This document shows, piece by piece, positions 28,233 through 46,413 of a stretch of 46,518 nt of DNA. The stretch is from Prevotella sp. (GTDB lineage Bacteria; Bacteroidota; Bacteroidia; Bacteroidales; Bacteroidaceae): assembly GCA_017550455.1 (NCBI GenBank), contig JAFZPF010000112.1:1-46518 (forward strand), read 5' to 3'. A program made the translations under genes and the position numbers. Under the pieces are notes generated by a model. The model was not told where the DNA came from. It saw only the letters and a list, made by a program, of their open reading frames with translations, and ran no database searches. Each line of letters starts with the position of its first letter. Within the stretch, counting starts at the first letter, position 1.

Positions 28233-28379
28233 AATTTTCCTTGTTATAATATTATAAATATCCTACATTTTGTTTCGTCTGCAAATATACAAAAATTCCC
28301 CGAAGATTCAAATGTTTCGAAAATTATTTCATTTATCCGAAAAAAAACATACCTTTGCATGATTGGTGAAGAGTGAAGA

Positions 28380-28452
28380 ATTTTGCGAGTAAGCGAGAGC
28401 AGAGTGAAACAAGTTTCAACTCTGCCGAGCGTGAGCAAAATCGCCGAAGGCA
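28380..28452 (-). repeat. dispersed hairpin element flanked by GTGAAGAGTGAAGA direct repeats
   Basis: Reverse complement GCCTTCGGC-GA-TTTTGC..CGCTCGGCAGAG/CTCTGCTCTCGCTT..GCAAAA. Confidence 0.7.
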
Positions 28453-28508
28453 GTGAAGAGTGAAGAGTTTAAGGCTTAAGGCTTTAAGGCTTTAAGGCTT
28501 TGAGGAAG

Positions 28509-28555
28509 ATGAAAAAAGGATTGGTATTGGAAGGAGGAGCGTTGAGGGGATTATT
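28509..28555 (+). pseudogene. orphan 5' fragment (about 16 codons) of the patatin gene
   Basis: MKKGLVLEGGALRGLF, identical in protein to the start of 31686-32537, with the same TACCTTTGCATGATTGGT promoter upstream. Confidence 0.9.
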
Positions 28556-28783
28556 CCGTATGCAATTGCCGTCTCCGAAGATGGTTCCTGTCCCCAAGTC
28601 GATACTGCTTTCCGTTTCCGAGATCACTCGGTTAACAACATCACCCAGACTCTTTGCGATGCTGACTTTATCGAATGTGTTTACTGATGAGGCAGGAATA
28701 GCAGAAGGGAACAACATCAACAAGACTGCAAGAAGATATCTTGCCGTCTGAGTGAATACGTATATGTTGCTCCTGTATCTCAT
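28556..28783 (-). pseudogene. 3'-truncated secreted protein gene
   Basis: Signal-peptide-like N-terminus; frame runs into the antisense of the patatin fragment at the junction. Confidence 0.5.
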
Positions 28784-28804: not shown

Positions 28805-29341
28805 TTAGTCCCGCTTTGATATAGGAAAGGTTATCCTAAGGATTTCTTTTATTATAGGATGGCCATTGTACAAAATATAATGAGATGGATCAATATATAA
28901 ACACAAAGTATCATTATTAAGCTTTGTCCTATAAATTATATCGAACATTTGTTTTACATATTTCTCCTTTTTCCCAAACAGTTCGTAGGAGGTTTGGATA
29001 TACGCAGACTCACCAAATGATTTCCCTCTTTCCTTTACCGGAATAATAGAAATGTTTGAGCTTGTTGTCACAATACGAAGTGAATCAGGGGTTATTAAAA
29101 ATCCTTTTCCTCGTAAAGTAGTATGAACAGTGATCCTATACGCATAGGTAGAATCTCCTTCCCATGTGCATTCAATACATGATTTATTTTTATCTAACAT
29201 TAATTCTTTTCTAATTTCCCCATCAATTAAAAGCCTTTTTATTCTTATTACTTTATAACTAGAAAAAACGAGAAGAGCCAGAAATAGGACAATTACCTTA
29301 AATGTCATTTTAGAACCCATAGAGATATTTATATTCCACAT
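28805..29341 (-). CDS. AT-rich hypothetical protein, lipoprotein/immunity-like
   Basis: 178 aa; hydrophobic leader ending LLVFSSY (lipobox-like, TAT where TGT would be expected); true start may be an internal Met. Confidence 0.6.
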   Translation of the reverse strand: MWNINISMGSKMTFKVIVLFLALLVFSSYKVIRIKRLLIDGEIRKELMLDKNKSCIECTWEGDSTYAYRITVHTTLRGKGFLITPDSLRIVTTSSNISIIPVKERGKSFGESAYIQTSYELFGKKEKYVKQMFDIIYRTKLNNDTLCLYIDPSHYILYNGHPIIKEILRITFPISKRD

Positions 29342-29416
29342 AGATCACCACCATTTCGTTTTATGTAAATCGATAAAATCCTCGTAATAATTATACCTTT
29401 CGACAAAGTTCCCTCC

Positions 29417-29676
29417 CGTTCCGGCGGATATATCATCCGCCGGTAATGAATATCAGGATTTAGATAAAATAGGCTGCGCTCGGCAATTTGAAAGCGAACT
29501 TTCATTGCACTCACTTGCACTATTTTTGCAATCCGCGAAAAGTTCTTTATAGTAACTGTTTGCTGCTCCATGTTTATTGCCGTTATTCACGCATTATACA
29601 TATTTTCATTATTTAAGTTACATGCGGATAGCATATCCGCCATTACTGACATCGGGATAACATATCCCGATGAACG
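29417..29676. repeat. inverted pair of CGTTC-headed REP hairpins (REPIN-like) with a nested hairpin element at 29461-29529
   Basis: CGTTCCGGCGGAT-ATATC-ATCCGCCGG at 29417-29443 and CATCGGGAT-AACAT-ATCCCGATGAACG at 29650-29676, each with a secondary GGAT..ATCC hairpin. Confidence 0.75.
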
Positions 29677-30265
29677 GATAGATGCTCTCAACATCCTGCA
29701 GGGTGATGAACTTGCCCTCACAGAGCCAGTCAATCAGTTTTGTCGCTGTTGTGCCAGATGTATTACTAACCACGCTCGACAACTTGATATTGCAGTCCTC
29801 TAAGATTCTCATGATGCGATTCTTTTCTGAAGCCACATGCTGTATCAGTTTATTGCGGTAGCGAGTCAGGTCTCTAAGCTGTCGCTGTTCCTTGGGGGGA
29901 ATATAACTCGGCTTTAGTAAACCTGCCAACAGGAGCTTGCATATCCACTCGCTGTCCATCTTGTCTGTCTTGTGGCCTGGCACATTCTTAATGTGACGGG
30001 CGTTCACTATCCAGACATTCGGTATCGCATCTTCGAGTATGCGGTACACGGGCTTCCAGTAGACTCCCGTACTCTCCATTGCCACGTGGGTAATGCCGTT
30101 CTGCAATAGCCATTCTTTCAATTCTGTCAAAGAACTCGTGAAGGTGTCGAATGAACGCGTCTCCTTGCGGATACCTTCACCCTTGATCGTTGCCACCACC
30201 ACCTTCAAGTGGACGTCAATGCCACAGCCGCGTAGCACTTGACTCGGGAATGAAACTTCTGCCAT
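29677..30265 (-). mobile_element. IS110-family transposase, C-terminally truncated
   Basis: CGIDVH, AMESTGVYW, KTDKMD (DEDD RuvC-like domain) and LRDLTRYR coiled coil; C-terminal catalytic-Ser domain absent; the frame enters REP sequence at 29677. Confidence 0.9.
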
Positions 30266-30356
30266 ATGATATACCTTTGGGGGTTCTGCCTACAAAGGTA
30301 ATATCAGATTAACAATTTTCATCCGCTTTGGCGAATATTATTTATTCATGGGCATT

Positions 30357-30959
30357 TCATTTTATTTGTTTTTGGGTCCAATCAGGATCTTTTAATATAT
30401 TACACCATATCTGATATATTTCTAATATACCATTTTCTTTACGCACACCTTTTGCAATCTTTATTGCTAATATATATATCAACCATATTGGGTTCATTTC
30501 AAGATTTCTAATTTTAATAACCATGTGTCCATAATTATTTTCCCTCTTATTTTTAGTATATTGTTCCCATTTTAAATCTTTATTATTGAATATCATAGTG
30601 TCACCAAGGTAAATCCCCACATCCATTATCTTTGAATACGTTGCTAAACTTAAATCCCAGTTCTCAACATGTATCTCTGAAGAAAATGAAGTTTTTTTTT
30701 CTTCATATTCATTTTCAGATAATAATTCTCTCTCAACATTATTTAAAAACCAATGAGATAATAATGTAAGAGATTCTTCCGAATAATCTGGTCTCCAAGT
30801 CTTAAATTGAGTATCAGCTACAATAACATGAGTTAGTTCTTCAACACGAATTAATTTGTTGTTAACAAACCAATCGGAGTATAATTTTACTTTTTTCTTA
30901 TCGTAATTATAAAAGTCCAATCCGATTGGAAGATTATTAATAATATTATATTTTTTCAT
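30357..30959 (-). CDS. AT-rich hypothetical protein, immunity-protein-like
   Basis: 200 aa, very low GC; DYSEESL..L..W and DVGIYLG..LKW..YG..VI..NP pattern recalled from genes downstream of polymorphic toxins. Confidence 0.6.
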   Translation of the reverse strand: MKKYNIINNLPIGLDFYNYDKKKVKLYSDWFVNNKLIRVEELTHVIVADTQFKTWRPDYSEESLTLLSHWFLNNVERELLSENEYEEKKTSFSSEIHVENWDLSLATYSKIMDVGIYLGDTMIFNNKDLKWEQYTKNKRENNYGHMVIKIRNLEMNPIWLIYILAIKIAKGVRKENGILEIYQIWCNILKDPDWTQKQIK

Positions 30960-31049
30960 CTTTGATTAATTAATGATTGTTTGACATTAATGATTACATT
31001 ATGCGAAAAACTCAACCCTTGTAATTATAATTTTCAAAGTTTTTTTATT

Positions 31050-31084
31050 GATCAAATGGGGACGGTTCTGCAATGATCCGTTTT
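31050..31084. repeat. GATCA-stem/GGGGACGGT-loop hairpin, copy 1
   Basis: 31 of 35 nt identical to 46379-46413. Confidence 0.85.
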
Positions 31085-31235
31085 ATCATCCGCAATAACT
31101 TCATCTTCTCCTCCTTTCTTTATTGATAAAATATTGTTAACTTGACTTTTAGCTATTACTTAGCGTTTGTATAACTTTGGCAAATATAGAGGATTTTTTT
31201 CATCCTGCAAAGAGAATCATGATTATTTTGGTTCA

Positions 31236-31476
31236 TCATTTGCTGCGAATTTCCAAAAGACTCAGGCAACTTTGTATCCCAGCGGATAGCAAATTCGTAC
31301 TTGGAAGGCCATATTTCATGGCTATTTCCTTCCGTGACTTGCCACTTTGCATGTACTCAATGCAAATACTGCGCTTCAAACCGCGACTGAATTTCTTGTT
31401 TCCCATTTTGCTTAAATGACTTTAATTATTTAACATTTAAGGCTGCATGGGAGTCAACCTATTTCAGGCTAAGACA
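31236..31476 (-). mobile_element. IS3-family left-end remnant (terminal IR plus degenerate orfA HTH)
   Basis: Reverse complement begins TGTCTTAGCCTGAAATAGGTTGAC; 56-aa ORF 31406-31236 MGNKKFSRGLKRSICIEYMQSGKSRKEIAMKYGL. Confidence 0.6.
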
Positions 31477-31685
31477 CTTAGATTTTACCGAGCGTAAGCA
31501 ATTTATCTAACGCAATACAAAATAAATCCTAATATATTTTTATTGCTGAGGTGCAGCTCATCTTATTTAAATATAATACGAAAGATTCATATTTCCAAAT
31601 GATAGGGGATTATTTATTTGCTCTGTAGAAAAAAACAACGTACCTTTGCATGATTGGTTTAGAGTTTTGCGATTTTTTGAGGAAT

Positions 31686-32537
31686 ATGAAAAAAGGATTG
31701 GTATTGGAAGGAGGAGCGTTAAGAGGATTGTTTACCGTGGGGATCCTTGATGTGCTCATGGAGAACGATGTCACCTTCGACGGGCTCATCGGTGTCTCCG
31801 CCGGGGCAGCCTTCGGATGTAACATGAAAAGCCGTCAGCCGGGGCGTGCCATCCGCTATAATACCGACTATGCCAAAGACTGGCGTTACTGCAGCTTCCG
31901 TTCTTACCTGAAGACCGGTGACCTGTTCGGCGGTGAGTTCGACTACCACTACCTGCCCCGACACCTGGATATCTTCGACGAAGAGGCATTCGACAAGAAT
32001 CCCATGGAGATGCATGTGGTATGCACCGATGTGACGACAGGCAAAGCCGTTTATAAGCAACTCGACAAATGCAGCTACGACTGTTATGAGTGGATCCGCG
32101 CCTCCGCCTCCATGCCCATCGTTTCGCATATCGTGAAGGTAGAAGGGTATCAGTTGCTCGACGGAGGCATCGCCGACTCCATTCCCTTGAAGTATTTCCA
32201 ACAGATAGGCTACGACAGGAATGTCGTCATCCTCACCCAGCCTGCCGGTTATGTGAAGGAAAAGAACAGGCTATTACCCCTGATGCGGATGCAGCTCCGC
32301 AAATATCCCGCCTTTATCAAGGCCGCTGCCGACCGCCATCTGATGTATAATGCGCAGACCGCTTATGTGAAAGAACAGGAGTCGTTGGGAAACGCCCTCG
32401 TGATCCGTCCGCACGAGCCGATACCTATCGGACATATCTCTCACGACCCAGAGGAAATGTGGAAGGTTTACCGCATCGGCAGAGCCGTAGGAGAAGAATA
32501 TCTGCAGAAGATTATCGACTTCCTGGCTAAGCCCTGA
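31686..32537 (+). CDS. patatin-like phospholipase
   Basis: EGGALRG, GVSAG and DGG motifs; start at ATG 31686 (283 aa). Confidence 0.95.
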   Translation: MKKGLVLEGGALRGLFTVGILDVLMENDVTFDGLIGVSAGAAFGCNMKSRQPGRAIRYNTDYAKDWRYCSFRSYLKTGDLFGGEFDYHYLPRHLDIFDEEAFDKNPMEMHVVCTDVTTGKAVYKQLDKCSYDCYEWIRASASMPIVSHIVKVEGYQLLDGGIADSIPLKYFQQIGYDRNVVILTQPAGYVKEKNRLLPLMRMQLRKYPAFIKAAADRHLMYNAQTAYVKEQESLGNALVIRPHEPIPIGHISHDPEEMWKVYRIGRAVGEEYLQKIIDFLAKP

Positions 32538-32649
32538 AACACTTTCTTTGAAAAAAGACAAACTTTTTTTTGGGCATTACAAGCGAAATGCGTAACTTTG
32601 TCGGTGAGCGATAAAAATTGTTTTTTTTACTCACTTATAGTAGTAAGCC

Positions 32650-33336
32650 ATGGGAAAGATAACACAGGAGAATTTTGAACATACCTACGTAGATCCTATC
32701 GAGTTACGTCAGATCGATAAGTTTGTGTGTGCTGAGATGGGGCGGCAGATACACCGTTACATCAAGGGAATGTCAGGATCAAAAAAGATCATGGAGAAAT
32801 TCGAAGAGGCCATCTCCACATTCTCTGTACCTGAGAAAGAAGTAGCCATCGCAAGGTATATCGACCTGAACCGAAAGGCTATCAGTGGGTTGGACTTCGA
32901 GATTGTATTGGCACGCGCCATCGCCAACTACTGTGATACGTACGACTATTTTTTGACGATGATCAACGACAAGGAAAAGATGGACTTCTACCTGAAACGT
33001 ATCAAAGACAAATATATCCGTTTCCATAAGGTGATTGAGCATAACGGGCTCTTCGGCATCGTTGATCATGAGGGAAAGACGATTATCTCCCCGAACTATG
33101 AATTCCTGCGTACCTGCTATACATATGTCGATGATCTGGTGACCATGCCCATCATCGCACAGAAAAACGGAAAACTCGGACTAATACTGCCCGACCGGAA
33201 AGATACCGTGGTAGCCGATTTCATCTTCGATGATATCCAGTTGCGCGACGAATATCCCTACTTCGAAGGATGGATCGGTGACAAGAAAGTTTATCTCGAC
33301 GAGTCATTCTACAATCAGACATTAGATAAAAATTGA
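32650..33336 (+). CDS. hypothetical protein with C-terminal WG-like repeats
   Basis: NGLFGIVDHEGKTIISPNYE and NGKLGLI; own -7 box TAACTTTG upstream. Confidence 0.65.
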   Translation: MGKITQENFEHTYVDPIELRQIDKFVCAEMGRQIHRYIKGMSGSKKIMEKFEEAISTFSVPEKEVAIARYIDLNRKAISGLDFEIVLARAIANYCDTYDYFLTMINDKEKMDFYLKRIKDKYIRFHKVIEHNGLFGIVDHEGKTIISPNYEFLRTCYTYVDDLVTMPIIAQKNGKLGLILPDRKDTVVADFIFDDIQLRDEYPYFEGWIGDKKVYLDESFYNQTLDKN

Positions 33337-33360
33337 AAAAACATAGTTACGTAACTATCG

Positions 33361-33388
33361 AAAGGTTTCTCATCAAGAGAAGCCTTTA
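33361..33388 (+). terminator. intrinsic terminator-like hairpin
   Basis: AAAGGTTTCTC-ATCAA-GAGAAGCCTTT. Confidence 0.65.
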
Positions 33389-33431
33389 TTGTAATTTATG
33401 CTCTTAGTTGGCGGGGACTACCAACGTATAT

Positions 33432-33720
33432 CAAAGGCCGAAGGCCTGATAAGATTATAGTCAGGCGGTGGAACTCTATTTTTGCCTGAGTCACCACCAT
33501 ACATAGTACAAAGGCCAAAGGCCTGATAAGATTATAGGCAGGCGGTGGAGCGCAGCGAAACCCCTGTAATGATGCATACGATCATCTAAACCCCGACGGG
33601 GTGACAGATTTCTGTCATACCTTCGGCATTTATTAATAGCGACCTTTTCGCAGGGGTTCCGCTTCGCTTCACCCCTGCCTATGGTCTATCGCACTTTCAG
33701 TGCTCTGGGCCAACTGATAT
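33432..33720. repeat. REPIN-like composite element (33509-33720) with a partial tandem copy (33432-33472)
   Basis: Inverted homolog at 43574-43785; ATAGGCAGG/CCTGCCTAT arms and four mini-hairpins. Confidence 0.85.
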
Positions 33721-33728
33721 ATCATTAC

Positions 33729-33779
33729 CTAAAATTAAAAGCAGAGTATGAAAAAAATAAAAAAAACAGAAATATTTGA
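33729..33779 (+). pseudogene. C-terminal remnant of a RelE/HigB (Gp49-like) toxin
   Basis: LKLKAEYEKNKKNRNI* overlapping the antitoxin ATG; no start codon or N-terminal part. Confidence 0.5.
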
Positions 33780-34053
33780 TGTTGATGCTCAATTGGATGC
33801 TTTCTTTGGTAAAGAAGGTTCTCCCGAACGCCGTGCTGCTGAAGAGCGTGCAAATGCATTCTTTACAGGTCAAATTATAGAAGAAGCACGTAAGAAAGCA
33901 AATATCACACAGGCTGAGTTAGCAGAGCGCATCGGTACAAACAAGTCTTATATCTCTCGTGTGGAGAACGGTAGGACAGAACCGAAAGTCTCAACTTTTT
34001 ATCGTATTGCTGCTGCTCTGGGCTTATCTGTGGAACTCATGCCAACAAATTAG
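33748..34053 (+). CDS. XRE/HTH transcriptional regulator, HigA-like antitoxin
   Basis: FGKEGSPER..., EARKKANITQAELAERIGTNKSYISRVENG. Confidence 0.88.
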   Translation: MKKIKKTEIFDVDAQLDAFFGKEGSPERRAAEERANAFFTGQIIEEARKKANITQAELAERIGTNKSYISRVENGRTEPKVSTFYRIAAALGLSVELMPTN

Positions 34054-34100
34054 AAGTGTAATTATTTTGCACTTTACACTTTTTTGTGTACTTTTGCGCC

Positions 34101-34258
34101 CGTAATCGGTTCACAATAAGTGATTAAAAGGGAATCAGGTGGAAGTCCTGAACAGTCCCGCTGCTGTAAATGTTATTTGTTGTGCAAGCAAAATACCACT
34201 GAAAATTTTTTCGGGAAGGTGCTTGCATGAAGACATAAGTCAGAAGACCTGCCATTGC
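34101..34258 (+). ncRNA. cobalamin riboswitch
   Basis: AAAAGGGAATCAGGTGGAAGTCCTGAACAGTCCCGCTGCTGTAA, CCACTG...GGGAAGG and B12 box AGTCAGAAGACCTGCC; -7 box TACTTTTG at 34089-34096. Confidence 0.95.
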
Positions 34259-34305
34259 AAATGTTTCATCACGGCCTCGAGGAAAGGCTTCGTAATGATT
34301 GATTT

Positions 34306-36309
34306 ATGAACAGGTTTTTATTATTCTTTTTGATGGTCTTTCTCACCCTCTGCTCGCAAGCGCAGAACAATCATCGTATGCAAAAAGAGCAGCAGTTAGA
34401 CTCCGTCATCGTCAAAGGGCACCGCATTGACAGGAATGTGTTAGCAGGGCGCCCCATACAGGTGATGCAGAAAGAAGAACTGGAGCAGTTAGGGCTTACC
34501 AACCTGGCGGATGCCGTAAAGAAATTCGCCGGCACAAACGTGAAAGACTATGGTGGCATCGGAGGTATGAAGACGGTGAGCGTGAGAAATCTCGGGGCAC
34601 ATCATACGGCAGTGAGCTACGACGGTATCACCATCTCCAACACCCAAGCCGGACAGATAGACATCGGGCGCTACACCTTAGATAATATACAGAGTGTCAG
34701 CATGGCTATCGGTGAACAGGAAGAACTGATGCAGTCGGCACGTCACTATGCCGCTGCAGGTATTCTGAACATGCTCTCGGAAAGGCCCCACTTCGAGAAT
34801 GGCCGTAAGGACGCTTTGCGTTTCCGGCTCCGGGCTGGTTCTTTCGGGTTGTTCAGTCCCTCCCTGTTATACTGGCGACAACTCGGTAATGCCACCACCC
34901 TGTCGCTCAACGGCAGTTATATGCGGGCTGACGGCACATATCCCTTCACGCTGATCAACGGTATCGAGAAGACGAAAGAGAAACGTTATAACTCCGATAT
35001 CTACTCCTGGCAGGGTGAGGCAAACATCTATCATACCTTCAAGGATGACAGTCAGTTAGACTGGAAAGCATGTTGGTATTACTCACAGCGTGGCTTGCCC
35101 GGCAGTGTGGTTCTTTATAACAACAGGAGTGAGGAGCGTTTGTGGGATGAGGATTTCTTCACACAGGCTATCTATAAACGCAGGCTGTCCGCTCATTGGA
35201 ACCTGCAGGCACGGATGAAATACACCCACTCATGGAATCGTTATGAAGATACCGATGTGAAATATACCGATGGCAAACAAGTGGATGTGGACCGGCAGAA
35301 CGAATACTACGGTTCTGCCACCATCGGCTGGAATCCGATAGCGATCCTCTCACTGGCTCTTGCACAGGATCTCTCGTACAACAACTTGAGGAACAATATC
35401 AACATTGCGAACAACAGTGAGTCTCCCTACCCCGAGCGATTTACTTCGCTGACCTCACTGACAGCACAACTGAGAACACAGCGAGTGGACATCACCGGAA
35501 ATATCGTAGCCACATACGCTACGGAGAAAGTGAAGAGCGGCAACCAGCCCGACGACCGCAAACGACTGTCACCCTCCCTGTCACTCTCCTATCGTGTGCT
35601 TCACGATCAGGCCCTGTTCCTCAGAGCCATGATGAAGAGCACCTTCCGCATGCCCTCGTTCAACGATCTCTATTATCGCCGGATGGGAAATACCGGACTG
35701 CGCCCGGAGATTGCACGCGAATATAATATAGGTATAACGTGGAGCGGACAACCGCTGCGTGCCGTAAGATACCTCAGTTTTACCCTCGACGGTTACTATA
35801 ATGACGTGACCGACAAGATCGTGGCATTCCCCAGCACGTATGTTTGGAAGATGGCCAACTTCGGTAAGGTACACATCAAAGGTGTGGATATGACCCTCGC
35901 CACGGAGATACCTGCCAGTCGGCAAGTGAGTGTTATCGTAACAGCCGCCTATACCTGGCAACAGGCAAAAGACAAGCTGGAGCAGTCGGCATCCTACAAC
36001 CGTCAACTGCCCTATACCCCGCAGCATAGCGGTAACCTCTCCCTGCTCGTGAGAAACCCGTGGGTGAATATCGGCTACAGTATGCTCATGCAAGGCAAAC
36101 GGTGGAGCTCCGCCCAGAATACTTCCGAGTATTCACTGAATGCGTATTGGGAACACACCCTCACCCTGAGTAAGGAGTTCCTGTTGAGATGGGCTCGCAT
36201 GAATATCCAAGGATCCATACACAACTTCACCGACACCCACTATGAGATTATCAAATATTATCCCATGCCGGGACGCTCATATCATTTATCTGCAACAATA
36301 ACATTTTAA
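34306..36309 (+). CDS. btuB: TonB-dependent cobalamin receptor
   Basis: LDSVIV TonB box, plug domain, FRMPSFNDLY and C-terminal PGRSY..F; under a B12 riboswitch. Confidence 0.9.
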   Translation: MNRFLLFFLMVFLTLCSQAQNNHRMQKEQQLDSVIVKGHRIDRNVLAGRPIQVMQKEELEQLGLTNLADAVKKFAGTNVKDYGGIGGMKTVSVRNLGAHHTAVSYDGITISNTQAGQIDIGRYTLDNIQSVSMAIGEQEELMQSARHYAAAGILNMLSERPHFENGRKDALRFRLRAGSFGLFSPSLLYWRQLGNATTLSLNGSYMRADGTYPFTLINGIEKTKEKRYNSDIYSWQGEANIYHTFKDDSQLDWKACWYYSQRGLPGSVVLYNNRSEERLWDEDFFTQAIYKRRLSAHWNLQARMKYTHSWNRYEDTDVKYTDGKQVDVDRQNEYYGSATIGWNPIAILSLALAQDLSYNNLRNNINIANNSESPYPERFTSLTSLTAQLRTQRVDITGNIVATYATEKVKSGNQPDDRKRLSPSLSLSYRVLHDQALFLRAMMKSTFRMPSFNDLYYRRMGNTGLRPEIAREYNIGITWSGQPLRAVRYLSFTLDGYYNDVTDKIVAFPSTYVWKMANFGKVHIKGVDMTLATEIPASRQVSVIVTAAYTWQQAKDKLEQSASYNRQLPYTPQHSGNLSLLVRNPWVNIGYSMLMQGKRWSSAQNTSEYSLNAYWEHTLTLSKEFLLRWARMNIQGSIHNFTDTHYEIIKYYPMPGRSYHLSATITF

Positions 36310-36320
36310 ATAATATCATT

Positions 36321-37391
36321 ATGAAATTCAGAAAAATTATGTTAGGTGCACTGAGTGCACTGATGATCACCGCAGGATTCACTGCCTGTGATGACGAAGA
36401 CTGGGATCCGATCAAAGAAGGTTCAACCATTGAGATGGTGCAGACACGTGCTTTTATCCTCAATGAGGGTAACTATGGAGATAACAATGCCGGCATCACC
36501 TATTTCGACTGGATGACAGACAACACCTATAACAGTGATCTGTACATGGCTCAGAACAAGAAGGCGTTGGGCGACACCGGACAGGATATCATCGTTGAAG
36601 ACGGAAATATCTATGTGATCCTCTCCAATAGTAAATCCATCGTAAAACTCAACAGTGTGGGTGTGGAGAAAGCAAGAGCATCTGTTCCTACCGACTTGGG
36701 AGATCCCCGTTATATGGTAGAGGAAGACGGTTATCTGTATGTCACCTGCTATGGTGGTTTCATCGCCAAATACAAAGCATCCGACCTCACCTTCGTCAGC
36801 AAGGTTACCGTGGGCCAGAACCCGGAATATATCATCGAGGAAGACGGTAAGCTCTATTGCACCAACTCCGGTTGGGGTAAGGACAACCGTGTGGCTGTCG
36901 TTGACATCAAATCCTTCAAAACTGCTACCTTCCAGGAGGTGATGAGTAATCCTGACCATATCATCGAGGTGGCCGACCATATCTATGTACAGGGGTACGG
37001 CGCAGCATACGACTACCCATGGGGTGAGCTGAAGAACGGCAAGTTCACACAGATCGGCAATGCCAGCAACTGGTGTGCTTACAGTAACATGCTGTATATC
37101 GTAAACTCTGTTACTGACTGGACAACCTACACCACCTCAAACACCTTCTATAGCTACAACGCCAAGACTGGTACGCTCAACAACAGCAGCTTCTTGAAGA
37201 ATGCCCCGGCAGAACTTGCCAGCTCTTCTGTCTATGGTATGAGCACGAACCCGAAGAATGGTGACATCTACATCATGACATCCGACTATGTCAACAACGG
37301 TAATGTCTATCATTTCAGAAACGACGGTACCTTCGTATCGAAGTTTGGCACAACAGGTCTCAGTCCACGTAAGATCGTCTTCCTGAACTAA
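36321..37391 (+). CDS. btuG: surface beta-propeller lipoprotein, BtuG-like
   Basis: Lipobox FTAC followed by acidic export signal DDED; ILNEGN and LGDTGQD motifs. Confidence 0.8.
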   Translation: MKFRKIMLGALSALMITAGFTACDDEDWDPIKEGSTIEMVQTRAFILNEGNYGDNNAGITYFDWMTDNTYNSDLYMAQNKKALGDTGQDIIVEDGNIYVILSNSKSIVKLNSVGVEKARASVPTDLGDPRYMVEEDGYLYVTCYGGFIAKYKASDLTFVSKVTVGQNPEYIIEEDGKLYCTNSGWGKDNRVAVVDIKSFKTATFQEVMSNPDHIIEVADHIYVQGYGAAYDYPWGELKNGKFTQIGNASNWCAYSNMLYIVNSVTDWTTYTTSNTFYSYNAKTGTLNNSSFLKNAPAELASSSVYGMSTNPKNGDIYIMTSDYVNNGNVYHFRNDGTFVSKFGTTGLSPRKIVFLN

Positions 37392-37398
37392 TACTTCA

Positions 37399-38532
37399 AT
37401 GAAGAATAAAAGCATACTTATCCTGTTTACCGTCCTGTTCCTCTGCGCTTGTGGCAGGAGAACAGGTACGGGAAAGGATGTCCAAGGAGACACCCTCCAA
37501 CTGAAGTATGCTGAACATCTCACCATCATCCGCCATCAGGGGTTTACCGAAGTGCTGTTGGCTGATCCATGGAATACCGGAAAGACATTACATAAGTATC
37601 TCCTGGTTCCCTCGGAGAGTGAACTGCCCCGACAGTTACCACAGGGATCGGTCATCCGCACCCCTATCCGAAAGGCAGTCATCGCCACCAGCGTGCACTG
37701 CGGACTTGTAGCGTCGATGGGTTGTCAGAAGGCCATTGCCGGTGTCTGCGATCAACAGTATATCCATCTGCCATGGGTACAAGAAGGTTGTAAGAATGGC
37801 ACGGTGATCGACTGTGGCAGCGGACTGGCGCCTTCGGTGGAGAAGATTATCGATGTGAATGCCGATGCACTCTTCCTCTCTCCCTTCCAGAACAGTGGTG
37901 GCTACGGCCCGGTGGTTGAGTTGGGCGTACCCATCGTGGAGACAGCCGACTATATGGAGACGTCTGCCCTTGGACGCGCTGAATGGATGAAATTCTACGG
38001 TATGCTGTTCGGTGTGGAGGAAAAAGCCGACAGTATCTTCCAGGAGGTGGAGAGCGATTATCTTTCGCTGAAGGAGAAAGCAGCCACCGCCAGTCGGCAG
38101 AAACCCCGGCAGTCGATCGTCATGGACAAACAGACGGGGTCCGTATGGTATGTGCCCGGAGGGAAGAGCACCATCGGAAAGATGATCACCGATGCCCAGG
38201 CCGACTATGCGTGGTCTGCCGATGACCATAGCGGTAGTTTGGCACTGCCTTTCGAGAGTGTTCTCGAGAAAGCAGGCAACGCCTCCTTCTGGTTCTTCCG
38301 GTATAATGCCCCTCAGCCCGTTACCTATGCCTCCCTGTTGAGTGAGCATCATGGCTATGATCACTTTGATGCCTTCCGCAACAAGAAAGCCTACGGCTGT
38401 AATACCGCCACCAGCACCTTCTATGAGGATACCCCCTTCCATCCCAACCTCCTCTTGCGTGACTTTGTCACCGTCCTCTATCCGGAATTATCTTTAGGAG
38501 AACCCCGTTATTTCATCCATTTACAACAATAA
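37399..38532 (+). CDS. btuF: ABC transporter substrate-binding lipoprotein (B12/Fe class)
   Basis: Lipobox LCAC; DYMETSALGRAEWMKF. Confidence 0.85.
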   Translation: MKNKSILILFTVLFLCACGRRTGTGKDVQGDTLQLKYAEHLTIIRHQGFTEVLLADPWNTGKTLHKYLLVPSESELPRQLPQGSVIRTPIRKAVIATSVHCGLVASMGCQKAIAGVCDQQYIHLPWVQEGCKNGTVIDCGSGLAPSVEKIIDVNADALFLSPFQNSGGYGPVVELGVPIVETADYMETSALGRAEWMKFYGMLFGVEEKADSIFQEVESDYLSLKEKAATASRQKPRQSIVMDKQTGSVWYVPGGKSTIGKMITDAQADYAWSADDHSGSLALPFESVLEKAGNASFWFFRYNAPQPVTYASLLSEHHGYDHFDAFRNKKAYGCNTATSTFYEDTPFHPNLLLRDFVTVLYPELSLGEPRYFIHLQQ

Positions 38533-38539
38533 GACCACG

Positions 38540-39559
38540 ATGCAAAAAGGAGCCCTCTTCCTGTTGGTAAGCACCCTGCTGATCATCATACTCTTCTGTG
38601 TGAGTCTGCTGATCGGAGCCGTTGACATCCCCGTCAACGAGGTCATCAGTATCCTTACCGGAAAGACATCGGAGAAGGCATCGTGGCAGTATATCGTGTT
38701 ACAGAGTCGTCTGCCGCAAGCTATCACCGCCACGCTCTGCGGAGGATCCTTAGCGGTCAGCGGACTGATGTTACAGACGGCTTTCCGTAACCCCTTAGCC
38801 GACCCGGGTATCTTCGGTATCAACAGTGGTGCATCGATGGGTGTTGCCTTGGTGATGCTCCTGTTAGGTGGGAATATCATCGCCGGCAACCTGAATATCA
38901 CCGGGTTCTTCGCCATCCTCTTGGCAGCCTTTATAGGGGCTATGCTCGTGATGGCCTTGATCCTCTTTTTCTCTACCATCGTGAGAAACAACGTGATGCT
39001 GCTGATTATCGGCATCATGATCGGATATATCACCTCCTCGGGCATTTCCCTGTTGAACTTCTTTGCCACAGAAGAGGGCGTGCAGAGTTATATGGTATGG
39101 GGATTGGGTAACTTCGGTGGTGTCACCATGCAGCAGATGCCGGTATTCGCCAGTGTGTGTGTGGCAGGACTGATCCTGTCTCTCCTACTGATAAAACCGC
39201 TGAATGCCTTGTTGTTAGGAGAGCAATATGCTGAGAACCTTGGTGTGAACACCCTGCGGGTACGTAATTATTTGTTGGTGGTTACCGGACTGCTCACCGC
39301 CATCACCACTGCCTTCTGCGGTCCTATCTCGTTTATTGGTTTGGCTGTACCCCATATCGCACGTATCCTACTTGGCACCGATAACCATCAGTGGCTCATG
39401 CCGGCCACCATCCTGTCAGGAGCCGTCATCGCTTTGCTGTGTAATATCCTCTGCGTGTTACCGGGTGATAACGGCATCATCCCCCTGAATGCCGTCACCC
39501 CCATCATCGGCGCGCCCGTTATCATCTATGTCATCGCCAAACAGCGAAAACGAGGTTAA
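38540..39559 (+). CDS. btuC: FecCD/BtuC-family ABC permease
   Basis: RLPQAITA, FRNPLADP, LGEQYAENLG and FIGLAVPH motifs. Confidence 0.9.
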   Translation: MQKGALFLLVSTLLIIILFCVSLLIGAVDIPVNEVISILTGKTSEKASWQYIVLQSRLPQAITATLCGGSLAVSGLMLQTAFRNPLADPGIFGINSGASMGVALVMLLLGGNIIAGNLNITGFFAILLAAFIGAMLVMALILFFSTIVRNNVMLLIIGIMIGYITSSGISLLNFFATEEGVQSYMVWGLGNFGGVTMQQMPVFASVCVAGLILSLLLIKPLNALLLGEQYAENLGVNTLRVRNYLLVVTGLLTAITTAFCGPISFIGLAVPHIARILLGTDNHQWLMPATILSGAVIALLCNILCVLPGDNGIIPLNAVTPIIGAPVIIYVIAKQRKRG

Positions 39560-39560
39560 T

Positions 39561-39646
39561 TAGTTCAAAGTTCATAGTGCATAGTTCATAGTTATGAGCT
39601 TATGATGTATTTTTAACTATGAACTATGCACTATGAACTATGAACT
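39561..39646. repeat. convergent ATAGTTC heptamer arrays forming a perfect 25 bp inverted repeat
   Basis: 39570-39594 pairs with 39614-39638; likely bidirectional terminator. Confidence 0.85.
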
Positions 39647-41317: not shown

Positions 41318-41492
41318 GATATATTATCTATCGTTGATATTTTTTCTATGACGCAAGAGGAATGTGTCATGTACCATATATATTAAACGGGAAAACATCT
41401 CTTTTATGTTCTTTTTCAACTCTTTTTTTACAATAACATGGCGATTATTGTGCTATTTTGATTAATTTTGCAGCGGATAAATCATTAAGTAT

Positions 41493-41828
41493 ATGCAAGA
41501 AACAAGACAAAATAAGATTTCACGACTCTTACAGAAGGAACTGAGTCTGATCTTCCAGAGTCAGACGCGCATGACGCATGGCATGCTGGTATCTGTGACA
41601 AGAGTAAGGATCAGTCCCGATCTGAGTGTGTGTACGGCCTACCTGAGCGTGTTCCCCTCTGAGAAAGCTGAGGAGACTATCAATAACGTGAATGCGAACA
41701 TGAAAACCATCCGTTATGAGTTGGGCACCCGCATCCGCAATCAGGTACGTATCATCCCCGAGCTGCGCTTCTTCCTGGATGACTCCCTCGACTATATCGA
41801 CCATATCGACGAGCTGCTCAAGAAATAG
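41493..41828 (+). CDS. rbfA: 30S ribosome-binding factor A
   Basis: VTRVRISPDL and RIIPELRFFLDDSL motifs. Confidence 0.96.
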   Translation: MQETRQNKISRLLQKELSLIFQSQTRMTHGMLVSVTRVRISPDLSVCTAYLSVFPSEKAEETINNVNANMKTIRYELGTRIRNQVRIIPELRFFLDDSLDYIDHIDELLKK

Positions 41829-41909
41829 TTCATAGTGCATAGTTCATAGTTTGGAATTCCCGTTCCCCGATTAACTATTAATTATTAACTTTTAATTATT
41901 AACTTTTAA

Positions 41910-43139
41910 ATGAACTTCCCGTTTTACATCGCCAAGAGATATCTCTTCTCAAAGAAGAGCACCAATGCCATCAATATCATCAGTGGCATTAGTGTGGTGG
42001 GCGTTGCTGTGGCTACCATGGCTTTGGTGGTCACGCTGAGTGTGTTCAACGGGTTTCATGACCTGGTGGCAACCTTCTTCACCTCCTTCGACCCCCAACT
42101 GAAGATCACGCCTCTTGAGGGGAAGTCGGCCCCTGCCGATGATCCCTTATTATTAAAGGTGAAACAACTGCCGCAGGTGGATGTCGCCACGGAGTGCGTG
42201 GAAGATAATGCGTTGGCGATCTATAAGAACAAGCAAGCCATGGTGGTGGTGAAAGGAGTGGAAGACAATTTCACGGAGCTCACCCATATCACCGATATCC
42301 TGTATGGCGACGGTGAGTATTCCCTGCATGCCGCCAACTTAGAATATGGCATCTTGGGTATCCGACTGGCAGTGGCGTTAGGCACCGGTGCCCGTTTTCA
42401 GGACTATCTGAAGATCTATGCCCCTAAACGGGAGGGACAGCTCGACATGGCACAGCCCACGGAAGGGTTTGTGGAAGACTCGCTGCTCTCACCGGGGGTG
42501 GTCTTCTCCGTACAACAAGCGAAGTACGACCGCAGTTATATCATCACCTCGTTAGGTTTTGCGCGTAGCCTCTTCGACAAGGAGGGACAGTTGTCTTCTT
42601 TGGAGATCCGTCTGAAGGCAGGCAGTAACTTTGATGCGGTGAAGAAGGAGATGCGTAAGATTGTGGGAGAACGGTATAAGGTGGAGGACCGCTATGAGCA
42701 GCAGGCTGACACTTTCCGTATCATGAAGATAGAGAAGCTCATCGCTTATTTCTTCCTTACGTTTATCCTGATGGTAGCTTGCTTTAACATCATCGGTTCA
42801 CTGTCGATGCTGATGATCGACAAGAAAGACGATGTGGTGACGCTGCGTAACTTAGGGGCTACGGATAAGCAGATCGTGCAGATCTTCCTCTTTGAAGGAA
42901 GAATGATCTCTGCGGCTGGCGCTATCGTGGGAATACTGTTAGGATTGTTATTGTGCTGGCTGCAACAGACTTACGGACTGGTTTCCTTAGGTTCTTCCAG
43001 CGGCAGCTTCGTTATCGATGCTTATCCCGTGAGTGTCCACCCCACGGATATCATCCTGATCTTCATCACCGTACTCGCCGTAGGTTTCCTCGCCGTATGG
43101 TACCCCGTGAGATACTTCGCCAAACGGTTGCTGGGCTGA
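41910..43139 (+). CDS. LolC/E (FtsX-like) ABC transporter permease
   Basis: IAKRYLF, SVFNGF and FNIIGSLSM..DKK..LG motifs. Confidence 0.9.
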   Translation: MNFPFYIAKRYLFSKKSTNAINIISGISVVGVAVATMALVVTLSVFNGFHDLVATFFTSFDPQLKITPLEGKSAPADDPLLLKVKQLPQVDVATECVEDNALAIYKNKQAMVVVKGVEDNFTELTHITDILYGDGEYSLHAANLEYGILGIRLAVALGTGARFQDYLKIYAPKREGQLDMAQPTEGFVEDSLLSPGVVFSVQQAKYDRSYIITSLGFARSLFDKEGQLSSLEIRLKAGSNFDAVKKEMRKIVGERYKVEDRYEQQADTFRIMKIEKLIAYFFLTFILMVACFNIIGSLSMLMIDKKDDVVTLRNLGATDKQIVQIFLFEGRMISAAGAIVGILLGLLLCWLQQTYGLVSLGSSSGSFVIDAYPVSVHPTDIILIFITVLAVGFLAVWYPVRYFAKRLLG

Positions 43140-43340
43140 ACGAAAGTTTCAAAATGGAGGTTATCTTCTACGGAAAGCACTTTAAGCGTTTAATCTTCAG
43201 CAATTTACCGAAAAATTTACCTCTACGGATCTTCTACGAATCTTCTACGGATTTTTATTATTTTATGAGTTTAGGCTTATCCTGTCCCCTCCCCATAGGA
43301 AGGGGTGTTCGATTCATAACGCATAGTCTCTCATCAAATT

Positions 43341-43399
43341 GTAGGGGCAGACTTCATGTCTGCCCGTTGCTACCGGGTAGGGATAAACCCTACCCCTAC
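43341..43399. repeat. GTAG-family REP inverted doublet
   Basis: GTAG-GGGCAGAC-TTCAT-GTCTGCCC and inverted GGGTAGGG-ATAAA-CCCTACCC-CTAC. Confidence 0.85.
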
Positions 43400-43412
43400 G
43401 AATAATATGAGC

Positions 43413-43562
43413 ATTAGTACTTAAACCGATGAGAAAAGGGTACTACAGGCCCGGCCCGTGGTACCCTTTTCACCGACTTTTAGGTACTAATACTCCACTA
43501 ATTAAGTACTAATTAGTCCAGTAAAGGGTACTAATACTCCACTAATTGAGTACTAATTAGTC
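43413..43562. repeat. long hairpin plus two 36 bp direct repeats
   Basis: GGTACTAATACTCCACTAATT(A/G)AGTACTAATTAGTC at 43483-43518 and 43527-43562. Confidence 0.8.
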
Positions 43563-43573
43563 GGCTTTTATTA

Positions 43574-43785
43574 ATATCAGTTGACCTAAAGCACTGAAAG
43601 TGCGTCATAACATAGGCAGGGGTGAAGCGAAGCGGAACCCCTGCGAAAGGGATATCATTAATAAGTGCTGAAGGCACGACAGAATATCTGTCACCCTTTC
43701 AGGGTTTTGATTATTGCATCCATCATAGCAGGGGTTTTGCTACGCTCCACCGCCTGCCTGTAATCTTAACGCCCCTTTGGGGCTT
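43574..43785. repeat. REPIN-like composite element, inverted copy of 33509-33720
   Basis: Colinear reverse-complement similarity over about 210 bp. Confidence 0.85.
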
Positions 43786-43865
43786 AAGTAACAGCAAACA
43801 CTGTTCATATTGGGCCAACTCCTATATTATAGCCTTTATTAATCAATACTCAAGCCCAATTCCAT

Positions 43866-43894
43866 GTGAACAGTGGGACGGTTCCCATGTTCAC
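43866..43894. repeat. TGAACA-stem/GGGAC hairpin
   Basis: GTGAACAGTGGGACGGTTCCCATGTTCAC; relatives at 44214-44243 and 45476-45634. Confidence 0.8.
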
Positions 43895-44091
43895 TTTCCT
43901 GCTGCGATAGCGGGAGAGTCAGTTAATAAAATCCGATGACCGAACATGATGCCGTAGGCATTGCGAGGACTTGTTTGAGCGAAGCGAGTCCCGCAGCAAA
44001 ATGTGAGGAATCGTGATTTTATCTGACTCGAAGCGTGCAGCATGGTCTCTCTTGTTTCCTTCTCTCTGCCGAAACAGAGAGAAGGAAGGTG

Positions 44092-44188
44092 TGTCAACCT
44101 TGTGTCAACCTGTGACAACCTCAAAAAGGTTGCATGCCCAGTGTTTATCAGGGTTGTGTCAACCTGACAACCTTTTTTGCAAAAAAAT
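44092..44188. repeat. about 100 bp dispersed element with TG(T/A)CAACCT units, copy 2
   Basis: Colinear similarity to 14584-14680. Confidence 0.8.
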
Positions 44189-44213
44189 CATAGTAGAAGA
44201 AAAAATGATAAGG

Positions 44214-44243
44214 TGAACAGTGGGACTCACGTCCCCTTGTTCA
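44214..44243. repeat. TGAACA-stem/GGGAC hairpin abutting the ATPase stop codon
   Basis: TGAACAGTGGGACTCACGTCCCCTTGTTCA immediately followed by TTA (minus-strand stop). Confidence 0.8.
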
Positions 44244-45368
44244 TTATTTCTCCTTCCTTACCCATAGAGAGAAAAGCGGATCGTTGAAATGTATGTTGCC
44301 ATCATCATCCATATATATCAGATCCTTGCTTATCATAGCTTTCTTTATTGCCTGGACATTAGCAGATGATTCAAGACGGTACTTTCGCAGAATATCCTTA
44401 CGGGTGAATCCTTGAGTAACTCCATTCGCAATCGCTCGCATGAAATTGTACTGCAGTTCTGTGAGTTGCTCCACGTCAGCCTGAAAGAATGTTTTATTCT
44501 GTTCCAGAAGGTCGTCTATGGCAGAGTCTATATTCTTGTCCGTTGTGGTTCCTTCTGTTTTATACCATGTTATCCATGAAAGTTGCTGCACATACGATGA
44601 CTGACACGCAGTGACATTACAGATGCGCTCGGCCTGCTTCTCGCTTATACTTTTCCCCGTATTAGAGAAGTTGCGGCAGATGAAAGGTATCCATTCCGTG
44701 ATCTCGATTTTCTTAAGGAACATCATATCGCCGAACTTAAAGAATGGCATACTTTTGTTGGAAAAGAAATTCTCCATGAGATGTTTCTTACTTCCGAACA
44801 TGCAGTATGTAACATCCTGTTGATGCTGCCACATGCTACGCAGTTTCTTTTGGAAATCAACGGAAGAAGGAAACTCTGCTATTTGCTGGAACTCGTCAAG
44901 GCAAACTATAATCTTCTTCCCCTTCTTCTCGGCTATTTTCTGTGGCAACGAGAGTATCTCGTCCTCTGTATCATCGCACTCATTCCATTCAAAGGACAAG
45001 CTAAAGTCATTGAGAGGGTCTGAACCAAAAGAAAACTTTGGAGTGATACCACTTAGGAATGTCTTTACCGTCTCCACCCATTCGTCTATCTTTGAAGACG
45101 TCTGTTTGATAACGCATGTTGAAAAATTACGATAGAACTCATACTCTGACTTGCATCGAAATACGTCGACAAAGACGGTGAGGAATCTCTCATCGTCAAT
45201 ACTACTTAAAACGTTCTTAACAAGCGAAGTCTTTCCCCATCGGCGTGGGGAGATGATTACTGTATTCATTCCATGCGTCAGATTTGCATTCAGTCGCTTG
45301 CGGTCTTCTACACGGTTGATGAAATACTCACCCTCTGCAGCCTTGCCTATGATAAAAGGATTCTCCAT
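44244..45368 (-). CDS. archaeal-type AAA/P-loop ATPase with C-terminal winged helix
   Basis: ENPFIIG..FINR; Walker A SPRRWGKTS; Walker B VCLDEFQ; FNDPLFSLW. Confidence 0.88.
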   Translation of the reverse strand: MENPFIIGKAAEGEYFINRVEDRKRLNANLTHGMNTVIISPRRWGKTSLVKNVLSSIDDERFLTVFVDVFRCKSEYEFYRNFSTCVIKQTSSKIDEWVETVKTFLSGITPKFSFGSDPLNDFSLSFEWNECDDTEDEILSLPQKIAEKKGKKIIVCLDEFQQIAEFPSSVDFQKKLRSMWQHQQDVTYCMFGSKKHLMENFFSNKSMPFFKFGDMMFLKKIEITEWIPFICRNFSNTGKSISEKQAERICNVTACQSSYVQQLSWITWYKTEGTTTDKNIDSAIDDLLEQNKTFFQADVEQLTELQYNFMRAIANGVTQGFTRKDILRKYRLESSANVQAIKKAMISKDLIYMDDDGNIHFNDPLFSLWVRKEK

Positions 45369-45475
45369 ATTCCTACACGATAATTACTTTTTGATGGTGC
45401 AAAGGTAGTAATAAAAAATAAAAGTAACAAACCTTTTAGTAAGAAGTTTATTACTAATAGAAGTATAACTTTATT

Positions 45476-45634
45476 TGAACAGGGGGACTCGTGTTCATTT
45501 GAACAGCGGGACCGTGTTCATTTTATTTCTGATGCAAAAATACAACTTATTTCAATATACTCCAAATATATCAAACTATAATGAACACTTAGAGTCCCCA
45601 TGTTCACCATGTTCATTCAGGGTTCCCGTGTTCA
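45476..45634. repeat. cluster of TGAACA...TGTTCA hairpins and half-sites
   Basis: Units at 45476-45497, 45500-45520 and 45582-45606; half-sites at 45607-45615 and 45621-45634. Confidence 0.8.
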
Positions 45635-45639
45635 TGTTA

Positions 45640-46086
45640 CTATACTCCTCTGTATGTGATAGAGAAAGATCTTGCATATGGCAGATATATCCTTCTATAT
45701 GAATAGACAGTATCAACTAATTTATTATCACGTATGTCTATCCATTTCTTTATTTTATCCTCCGATGATGCAAAAGCTACAAATACACTATCTCCAATAT
45801 TATCGATTGTACCTCCCCCACTCCATTTAGCTTCATCATAATAAGTCCTCCATCTAATATCGATCTCTTTTGTGCTAAGAGCATCAATTGATTCAAACTG
45901 TTGATTGGATTCTAAGATTGATTCTCCATTAAAGCGAGAACCATGAACAGCAACAAATAATTCCTTTTCAGTCAGATTATGAATATAGATAGACAAGTTA
46001 CTGTCTGGTTCTAACTCACAACCACGACAACATGATAAGAAAAAGGGTAATAAAACTCCAACGGTCACGTATAAATATTTTTTCAT
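45640..46086 (-). CDS. AT-rich lipoprotein, candidate immunity protein
   Basis: MKKYLYVTVGVLLPFFLSC lipobox; starts 17 bp after the toxin-like fragment. Confidence 0.7.
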   Translation of the reverse strand: MKKYLYVTVGVLLPFFLSCCRGCELEPDSNLSIYIHNLTEKELFVAVHGSRFNGESILESNQQFESIDALSTKEIDIRWRTYYDEAKWSGGGTIDNIGDSVFVAFASSEDKIKKWIDIRDNKLVDTVYSYRRIYLPYARSFSITYRGV

Positions 46087-46102
46087 ATATAAAATGGTGT
46101 TT

Positions 46103-46378
46103 TCAGTTATTTTTTTTGTAGTAATAATCTATAATTCTGTCAATATTGACTGGATATTCCTCATACTTCCAAGGTATTCCTTTTTTCCTAAAATATTTTT
46201 CAGCTTTTTGATTTGCATTAACTTCAAACCATCGGGTTAAATGCTTATCTACGCTGAAGACTTCGTCGACATGAAGATGATCTTCGATAAGAGCATGCCA
46301 GTCATTATCTATTTTACTGCTAAGTAGGCTTGGAATACCAACTGAAAAAAGATATCCCCAACCATATTCTTGACTTTG
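46103..46378 (-). pseudogene. C-terminal fragment of an Rhs-type zincin-like toxin domain
   Basis: IQSQEYGWGYLFSVGIPSLLS...RWFEVNANQKA resembles the sequence following HEYGH in Bacteroidetes Rhs tips; the HExxH motif is replaced by repeat-derived sequence. Confidence 0.6.
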
Positions 46379-46413
46379 GATCAAACGGGGACGGTGCTCA
46401 AATGATCCGTTTT
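46379..46413. repeat. GATCA-stem/GGGGACGGT-loop hairpin, copy 2
   Basis: 31 of 35 nt identical to 31050-31084, same orientation. Confidence 0.85.

Follow-up and report, generated by a model that had tools for sequence, protein, structure and literature searches.

Ends of two HUH transposon families border trimmed toxin and immunity gene cassettes in a Prevotella genome

At four sites in contig JAFZPF010000112.1 of a Prevotella sp. (assembly GCA_017550455.1), a short dispersed repeat is followed by an open reading frame tail that lacks a start and then by a complete small gene in the same orientation. The question raised by this arrangement is whether such repeats are breakpoints at which toxin genes are trimmed while the antidote genes behind them stay whole. 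The contig, analyzed in its full length of 46,518 nt and referred to as the window (C133 of genome G000), belongs to a metagenome bin of 294 contigs that is 82% complete, and the four sites, (a) to (d), lie among housekeeping genes. A preliminary description had treated them as instances of one hairpin-delimited system. Repeats, tails and genes are indeed present at the positions given there, except that junction (c) lies at 33730 and not at 33720. A single hairpin family is ruled out, however: sites (b) and (d) carry terminal inverted repeats (TIRs) of a TIRtron, site (a) carries a repetitive extragenic palindromic (REP) end of a REPtron, and the REPIN at site (c) is unrelated to both. Our reading, to which we assign a probability of about 0.55, is that HUH transposons insert in the direction of their target genes and delete DNA on one side, that selection spares antidote genes and that pieces bounded by the repeats are shuffled. 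All metagenome data used here were contigs.

The repeats at (b) (31050-31083) and (d) (46379-46412), both on the minus strand, are 35-nt copies and 89% alike. Hairpins had been proposed for all sites, and the CGTTC repeat at (a) (29417-29421) is a true hairpin (z -3.3, with 0 of 200 shuffles as good), whereas those at (b) and (d) fold no better than shuffles (z -0.05 and +0.15), so that a stable hairpin is ruled out for them and they are regarded as terminal inverted repeats. A profile search for the GATCA..GGGAC..TGATC repeat yielded 18 matches at E <0.1 in the genome. On contig C124, an intact Y1_Tnp gene (8070-8429), whose product has the NHVH and YIHQNP motifs, stands between inverted copies of the same repeats (TIR 7871, plus strand; TIR 8909, minus strand), and for this reason the repeats at (b) and (d) are identified as right ends of a TIRtron. 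The one at (b) is 97% identical to the right TIR on C124 and belongs to a deleted TIRtron. Remnants of the transposase gene are retained at both sites. Its promoter region survives at (b) and includes a putative promoter motif of the Bacteroidetes type at 31181-31211 (minus strand) that points at gene (b). At (d), the last bases of the transposase gene are left at the contig end (46472-46518, minus strand), and the earlier statement that the window holds no RAYT (REP-associated tyrosine transposase) gene has to be qualified to this extent, since these last 47 nt match the 3' end of a TIRtron transposase gene with 79% identity. The C terminus of the C124 transposase matches the helix-turn-helix (HTH) models HTH_58, HTH_28 and HTH_23 weakly (E ~1e-3, under the Pfam cut-offs), and the protein scores 57.7 bits against the NCBIfam RAYT model, which has a cut-off of 80. 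Repeat copies read GGGGACGG, corresponding to 7 of 8 positions of GGGGWSAS, and many relatives read GGGGACAG. The element on C124 has the TIRtron layout (PMC3733652) and probably belongs to subclass 2.1 (PMC6006769). The exact TIR pattern occurs at 12 loci in the species collection, eight of them in two Prevotellaceae genomes and four in unrelated taxa, where the one locus viewed (L008) looked like chance. Three further Y1 transposases with repeat families of their own are encoded on C138 (2500-3350, L003), C189 (L001) and C35 (L004) of G000, and the C138 gene lies between direct repeats.

Site (a) is identified as the right end of an internally deleted REPtron (29415-29677, minus strand) with its REPb left end at 29677 and its REPa right end at 29416, because this segment matches both ends of an intact element in genome G748 (C261, locus L184) with 84-91% identity. 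In the intact element, a Y1 gene lies between REPb and REPa, and its product carries the motifs of subclass 2.6 (NH[LIV]H, WQ, YIH[QN]NP), which goes along with its occurrence in Bacteroidetes and atypical flanking hairpins. Intact Y1 genes on C124 and in L184 thus bear out the proposal that the repeats belong to elements with HUH/Y1 transposases. REP copies are dispersed in three genomes; the exact REPa pattern was found in none of 200 other genomes of the genus, and all 14 matches of the REP pattern in viral contigs were devoid of a hairpin arm. The REPb left end at (a) cuts an IS110 transposase gene, the 5' part of which is left at 29678-30265 (minus strand), a victim that is not a toxin. 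In G748, REP left ends in L013 and L179 cut other TIRtron transposase genes just past the region of the catalytic-tyrosine motif.

The outer edges of both element types are precise breakpoints, as had been suspected. Wherever a donor matched at the edge (ten junctions, 4 REP and 6 TIR), its homology begins 0-3 nt from the element; three other donor matches, which began 12-25 nt away, where a contig starts or the DNA is diverged or repeated, were left out of this count. Among 29 distinct REP ends, 26 are followed by a G. For the TIR donors, 5 of 6 cuts can be placed after pyrimidine-A with a positional uncertainty of one base, which tentatively suggests pyrimidine-A^pyrimidine as the target. 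TnpA-REP cuts and joins single-stranded DNA at dinucleotides (PMC3333891; PMC8266576), and a short target chosen by the enzyme would fit this chemistry. The junctions are also polar. Gene tails read away from right ends, while left ends are in most cases preceded by gene heads or by 3' ends 0-35 nt away, and in L010 and L184 the elements have heads and tails of Rhs genes on their flanks. Cuts fall ≤330 nt from the next start codon in 21 of 22 small-gene cassettes (median 90 nt, three of the distances being estimated by hand). The same polarity dominates at the TIRtrons of other species, where a TIR pair was recognized in 20 of 37 loci and about nine genes, judged by eye, are cut at the edge. 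Only one of these is a toxin tail (L119, of the same Rhs family as the tail at (d) and accompanied by a lipoprotein); the others include lipoprotein heads and fragments of AraC-type, surface-protein and transposase genes. Oriented insertion followed by one-sided deletion would explain this polarity.

At (d), the headless tail of 91 aa (46103-46378, minus strand) is recognized by homology as the C terminus of an SpvB/VCBS/RHS polymorphic toxin: it is 56% identical over 91 aa to residues 1896-1986 of a 1995-aa protein and starts just past the HExxH motif of full-length relatives, which are SpvB/VCBS/RHS proteins of ~2000 aa. The adjoining lipoprotein gene (45640-46086, minus strand; 148 aa) is predicted to encode the immunity protein. 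In 46 metagenome loci of the tail family the next gene is, as judged by eye, mostly lipoprotein-like with 135-175 aa, and the window lipoprotein matches two genes from these loci, with an E value of 8e-8 for the gene behind L020. Two element families cut this cassette at three lengths, leaving 91 aa at the TIR in the window, ~21 aa at a REP in run X17, and ~190 aa in protein P0001, which has a REP-derived N terminus and is 97% identical in the shared part. Repeats that have GAACA arms and share the GGGAC core form a cluster at 45477-45630, which closes the cassette on its 3' side and closes a different cassette in G748. P0001 retains the HExxH motif and has an in-frame start inside the REP; similarly, L013:138-497 keeps a nuclease-like domain with an in-frame start codon. 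Trimmed cassettes of this kind, which keep an apparently whole toxin domain, might serve as intracellular toxin-antitoxin modules.

Gene (b) (30357-30959, minus strand; 200 aa, GC 0.27) is likewise predicted to encode an immunity protein, on the basis of its family context. The family comprises 584 representatives and is found directly behind a toxin domain of the contact-dependent inhibition (CDI) type in two of three plasmid loci examined; in the third locus an insertion sequence (IS) fragment precedes the gene. One of the two loci with a toxin domain forms part of an array that also holds haemagglutinin repeats and a colicin-E5-like pair. We take the CDI-type toxin domain to be a nuclease. 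The 16-aa tail (30999-31049, minus strand) is too short to be placed. A search of 250 Bacteroidales genomes gave no member of family (b), and the only genus named among the homolog clusters looked up is Pseudobutyrivibrio (44% identity). Gene (a) (28805-29341, minus strand; 178 aa, GC 0.31) encodes a protein with an N-terminal hydrophobic segment. Its 22-aa tail (29345-29415, minus strand) matched none of 122 Rhs C-termini, and a search for a toxin donor gave weak matches in two of 250 family genomes, neither of them behind toxins. The one close homolog of gene (a) among 200 genus genomes follows a BsuBI/PstI restriction gene, and three close protein clusters come without gene context. As judged from the proteins alone, close homologs begin with residues readable as a TIR translation. 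No Pfam or NCBIfam family matched genes (a), (b) or (d), and no solved structure was found for family (b) or its toxin domain. The view of the tails as toxin C-termini with their antidotes thus holds by homology or family context for (b), (c) and (d) but is not supported for (a), where no toxin context was found. The block with genes (a) and (b) has on either side a copy of the promoter and initial codons of a patatin gene (28345-28555, 31630-31732), the two copies being diverged, and G748 has a single copy and no block at this site. A fragment of a signal-peptide gene is repeated in the arrays (window 28484-28783; C148:33400-33600; L016:1591-2085); in the window and in L016, it ends at a repeat of the GGGGACAG type.

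Site (c) differs from the others. Here, a REPIN block (33403-33729) replaces 526 bp that are intact in G748 and comprise the promoter and most of a HigB/Gp49 toxin gene. The last codons of the HigB-like gene (33730-33779, plus strand) and an intact HTH_3 antitoxin gene (33748-34053, plus strand) are left, and G748 has the intact HigBA pair at the same site. Of seven other loci with this antitoxin, four keep the toxin frame intact, and in a fifth the frame is interrupted by a single internal stop. This case is read as trimming in place and not as capture. The 25 listed copies of the REPIN lie mostly beside ordinary genes, and by eye a toxin tail was seen only at (c), so that this common REPIN is ruled out as a general trimmer, and membership of (c) in a shared pattern was not confirmed. 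The HigBA toxin has been lost independently in two other species (L116, L142), beside but not at TIRs and with the antitoxin whole, and in L160 (G000:C212:7156-7855) a Gp49/HTH toxin-antitoxin pair is intact and stops 7 nt short of a REPb left end.

Comparison of close genomes shows that the cassettes vary between strains. G748, which is 94-98% identical to the window across shared DNA, lacks the block with genes (a) and (b), has HigBA intact and carries a cassette with a nuclease-like tail at site (d). At two orthologous sites in close genomes, different cassettes stand behind an identical TIR; at the second of these, G000 has a 13-aa tail and a gene whose homologs follow Rhs toxins, while G748 has a ribonuclease tail and barstar. 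Two further genes have tails of two lengths, a different one for each element family, and a regulator segment of 483 bp is present twice (99.2% identity), one copy adjoining a REP end and the other a TIR. Block (b) is skipped by contigs of two runs, the joint having short sides, and contigs from other studies span tail (d) and the lipoprotein gene into the TIR (X13, 45560-46407; X15, 45733-46392), with only 14-29 letters on the TIR side. Arrays of at least two co-oriented genes with <41% GC and repeated intergenic motifs comprise (a) and (b) in the window, C148, C124, L010/L182 and L179. No tyrosine recombinase gene was found directly upstream of the arrays mapped; an XerC/D-like gene at 23324-24238 lies 4.5 kb from the window array behind several housekeeping genes, and no link to it was found. 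Nor was an integron integrase detected at these arrays, in a search that did not extend to attC models.

Are the breakpoints specific for toxins, as had been suggested? They are not. The 31 right ends of G000, G748 and G749 were classed by hand, with left ends, nested element joins and ends near contig borders excluded. Eight were assigned to toxin-tail/immunity cassettes by homology or family context, seven enter non-toxin genes, two are empty, and 14, in which a short tail is followed by a small low-GC gene, mostly for a lipoprotein, could not be placed. Among the genes cut by the same ends are those for a LuxR/TPR regulator, the IS110 transposase and other Y1 transposases as well as outer-membrane and AraC-type genes. 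Searches in genomes with three initially unplaced genes identified one as the gene behind an Rhs toxin, which is counted among the eight, and left the class of the other two as it was. For a 214-aa cassette gene, the one weak match in 140 genomes was uninformative, and Pfam did not confirm the Imm26-like and Imm44-like appearance of two cassette genes. On the other hand, relics of toxin and immunity genes cluster at the elements in this genome: all four matches of Rhs libraries (90 genes in immunity position, 122 C-termini) in G000 fall in the arrays. A crude proxy, an edge-open tail followed by a low-GC gene, applies to three of the five REPa ends scored, to three of 13 TIR ends when left and right ends are taken together, and to none of 56 scored ends of four unrelated repeat patterns, 0.55% of random positions and 7% of random low-GC positions; two further patterns are parts of the REPtron remnant and were not counted as controls. 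Across the genus, the full pattern of an Rhs tail and an immunity gene at a right end occurs at one of 37 TIRtrons, which elsewhere cut mostly ordinary genes, and none of 28 bounded Rhs-core frames from other genomes of the genus starts clearly at a TIR or REP hairpin, including two that were inspected further. In the assembly, the only Rhs core is 371 aa long and lies where a contig breaks off. At L158 (G000:C269:15475-17797), an Rhs core with a Tae4-like amidase C terminus and a thioredoxin-like gene is closed by REPb ends, and the contig ends inside the Rhs gene.

These observations can be accommodated by a sequence of events in which general cutting is followed by selection. The repeats are the ends of two families of HUH (Y1) transposons, whose enzymes may cut single-stranded DNA at short targets, at a G junction in the case of REP and tentatively at pyrimidine-A^pyrimidine in the case of TIR. 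Insertion likely follows the orientation of the target gene, and a deletion on one side of the element would likely come next; toxin genes would be eroded from the front, and selection would spare the antidote gene behind. Pieces bounded by two element ends may move or swap between sites, through the enzyme or through host recombination at repeats, and the genes kept may protect against the toxins of neighbours. Cutting would not be toxin-specific, and any antidote bias would come from selection. Transposons would then likely build antidote collections without a recombinase, since their ends abut cut toxins, the antidotes are whole and the cassettes vary between strains. Several points weigh against this reading. 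The pattern is strong in three genomes only (G000, G748, G749), which are close kin and not independent, and with 14 of 31 right ends unplaced the antidote share may be as low as 26% or as high as 71%. Some immunity-like genes (L019, L014) have lost their 3' ends at a left end, so that selection would have to be incomplete. The exact cognate REP transposase was not found in the 82%-complete assembly, the nearest being 54% identical; junction (c) lies within a 6-nt microhomology usable by host repair; and in L116 and L142 HigB was lost with no repeat at the junction.

A more elaborate scheme would be a dedicated, integron-like acquisition, in which the Y1 enzyme joins foreign single-stranded DNA to a resident right end that supplies the promoter, so that cassettes are added at fixed sites. 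The exchange of cassettes behind identical TIRs, their frequent closure by a left end 0-35 nt past the stop codon, the distribution of family (b) and the copying of one non-toxin segment to a second site would all be expected from it, as would the promoter motif at a fixed -133/-134 position in four deleted TIRtrons. Promoter motifs show no overall enrichment at element ends, however (10 of 52 ends versus 12% of random low-GC windows), and trimming in place at (c), elements inside the remains of Rhs loci (L010, L184), right ends in non-toxin genes and the scarcity of Rhs tails and Rhs cores at elements across the genus speak against it, so that we consider it doubtful. In its most far-reaching form, with domesticated HUH transposases that join foreign DNA, cut off the toxin and express the antidote from the element promoter, it would amount to recombinase-free acquired immunity, an idea that we put forward as speculative, if marginally less doubtful. 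Capture from a distant donor would be possible.

At the other extreme, repeats might simply pile up harmlessly in AT-rich islands that are eroded by host repair and recombination, with short and common immunity genes surviving. That non-toxin genes are cut, that toxins are lost without repeats, that microhomology exists at (c) and at REP junctions and that some immunity-like genes lack their 3' ends would agree with such a neutral process. It would explain where the repeats lie, but not why junctions sit precisely on the outer edge of an element and have a fixed base in the case of REP ends, why breakpoints crowd before start codons or why random low-GC positions and REPa ends differ in the proxy; in addition, 26 of 35 low-GC genes of G000 are on contigs that lack these elements, which means that low-GC islands are not generally colonized. 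We regard this process, too, as doubtful. An assembler that joined unrelated sequences at repeats is the least credible source of the pattern and hardly to be expected, even though this is a fragmented metagenome bin whose contigs often end at these repeats: contigs X13 and X15 from other studies run into the TIR, albeit with the short TIR side given above, the same architecture is present in two separately assembled genomes, and the junctions are strand-polar and base-specific. General insertion and one-sided deletion with selection for antidotes remains our preferred explanation.

As to the setting, relatives that share these repeats carry the names Prevotella or Prevotellaceae in their titles, and the sequencing runs containing window DNA are gut metagenomes, some of them bovine. 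Site (d) adjoins a gene for an AAA ATPase (44244-45368) that is 99% conserved between runs and weakly matches the anti-phage model NF053860, far under its cut-off. Genes for a TonB receptor, a DUF5074 protein and FecCD-type ABC components (34060-39559) lie behind a conserved leader, which presumably is a cobalamin riboswitch. Repeat islands at 39562-39646, 41825-41897 and 43409-44190 consist of several other abundant families (AACTATG, TGTCAACC and GTACTAAT types) and are unrelated to the cassettes.

ISCR elements, IS91 and Helitrons have Y2 rolling-circle HUH enzymes, ori and ter ends and one-ended transduction. Named in PMC3333891, they resemble the present elements in that an HUH enzyme moves neighbouring DNA, but the enzymes here are of the Y1 type. 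More closely related are TIRtrons/TIRYT (PMC3733652; subclass 2.1, PMC6006769), with which the C124 element shares the Y1 domain with a C-terminal HTH, TIRs with a core close to GGGG[AT][CG] and a small dispersed repeat family; the text consulted assigns TIRtrons no activity or cargo, whereas here their ends are precise polar breakpoints bordering swapped cassettes. REPtrons of subclass 2.6 (PMC6006769) share NHLH, WQ and YIHQNP motifs and atypical hairpins; properties of RAYT groups were taken from PMC5581495. E. coli REPtrons have been described as not moving as a unit, while intact and deleted elements inside genes and at strain-variable sites are seen here. It has been proposed that REP units can sequester whole genes or gene fragments (PMC3333891), and in our case the fragments often are toxin tails with immunity genes. 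A headless toxin C terminus with an intact immunity gene is also known from orphan cdiA-CT/cdiI and rhs-CT/rhsI modules, which have been proposed to form an immunity repertoire and some of which are disrupted by IS elements (PMC3150448). There, the modules lie behind a full-length toxin gene and begin at a conserved motif, VENN; the cassettes described here start at transposon ends and arbitrary codons, are mostly cut too far down to keep a toxin domain, lie between housekeeping genes and have cut points that vary within one cassette. Recombinase-associated (rAID) and polyimmunity loci (PMC12247911, PMC3482391) are alike in their co-oriented, low-GC and strain-variable small genes and repeated intergenic motifs. 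Yet an adjacent tyrosine recombinase is what defines rAID, the biogenesis of which is described as open (PMC12247911), whereas the arrays here are short (1-4 genes), have HUH transposases or their remnants as neighbours and retain toxin stubs. Two questions meet in this lineage, the in vivo role of REP- and TIR-associated Y1 transposases and the assembly of orphan immunity genes in Bacteroidales. Acquired immunity, if true, would be the first host function for TIRtrons and subclass-2.6 REPtrons, and orphan-immunity arrays would then have another origin in addition to rAID. With before/after alleles from nature, nested cuts and two enzymes known together with their ends (C124, L184), target sequence, polarity and gene capture are directly testable in vitro. 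In a literature search that left aside most subscription journals, no paper was found that ties TIRtron or subclass-2.6 ends to toxin/immunity cassettes, and the term TIRtron was found only in the founding paper. While the elements and the headless toxin/immunity modules each are of known kinds, the link between TIRtron or subclass-2.6 REPtron ends and strain-variable toxin-tail/immunity cassettes was not encountered in this search.

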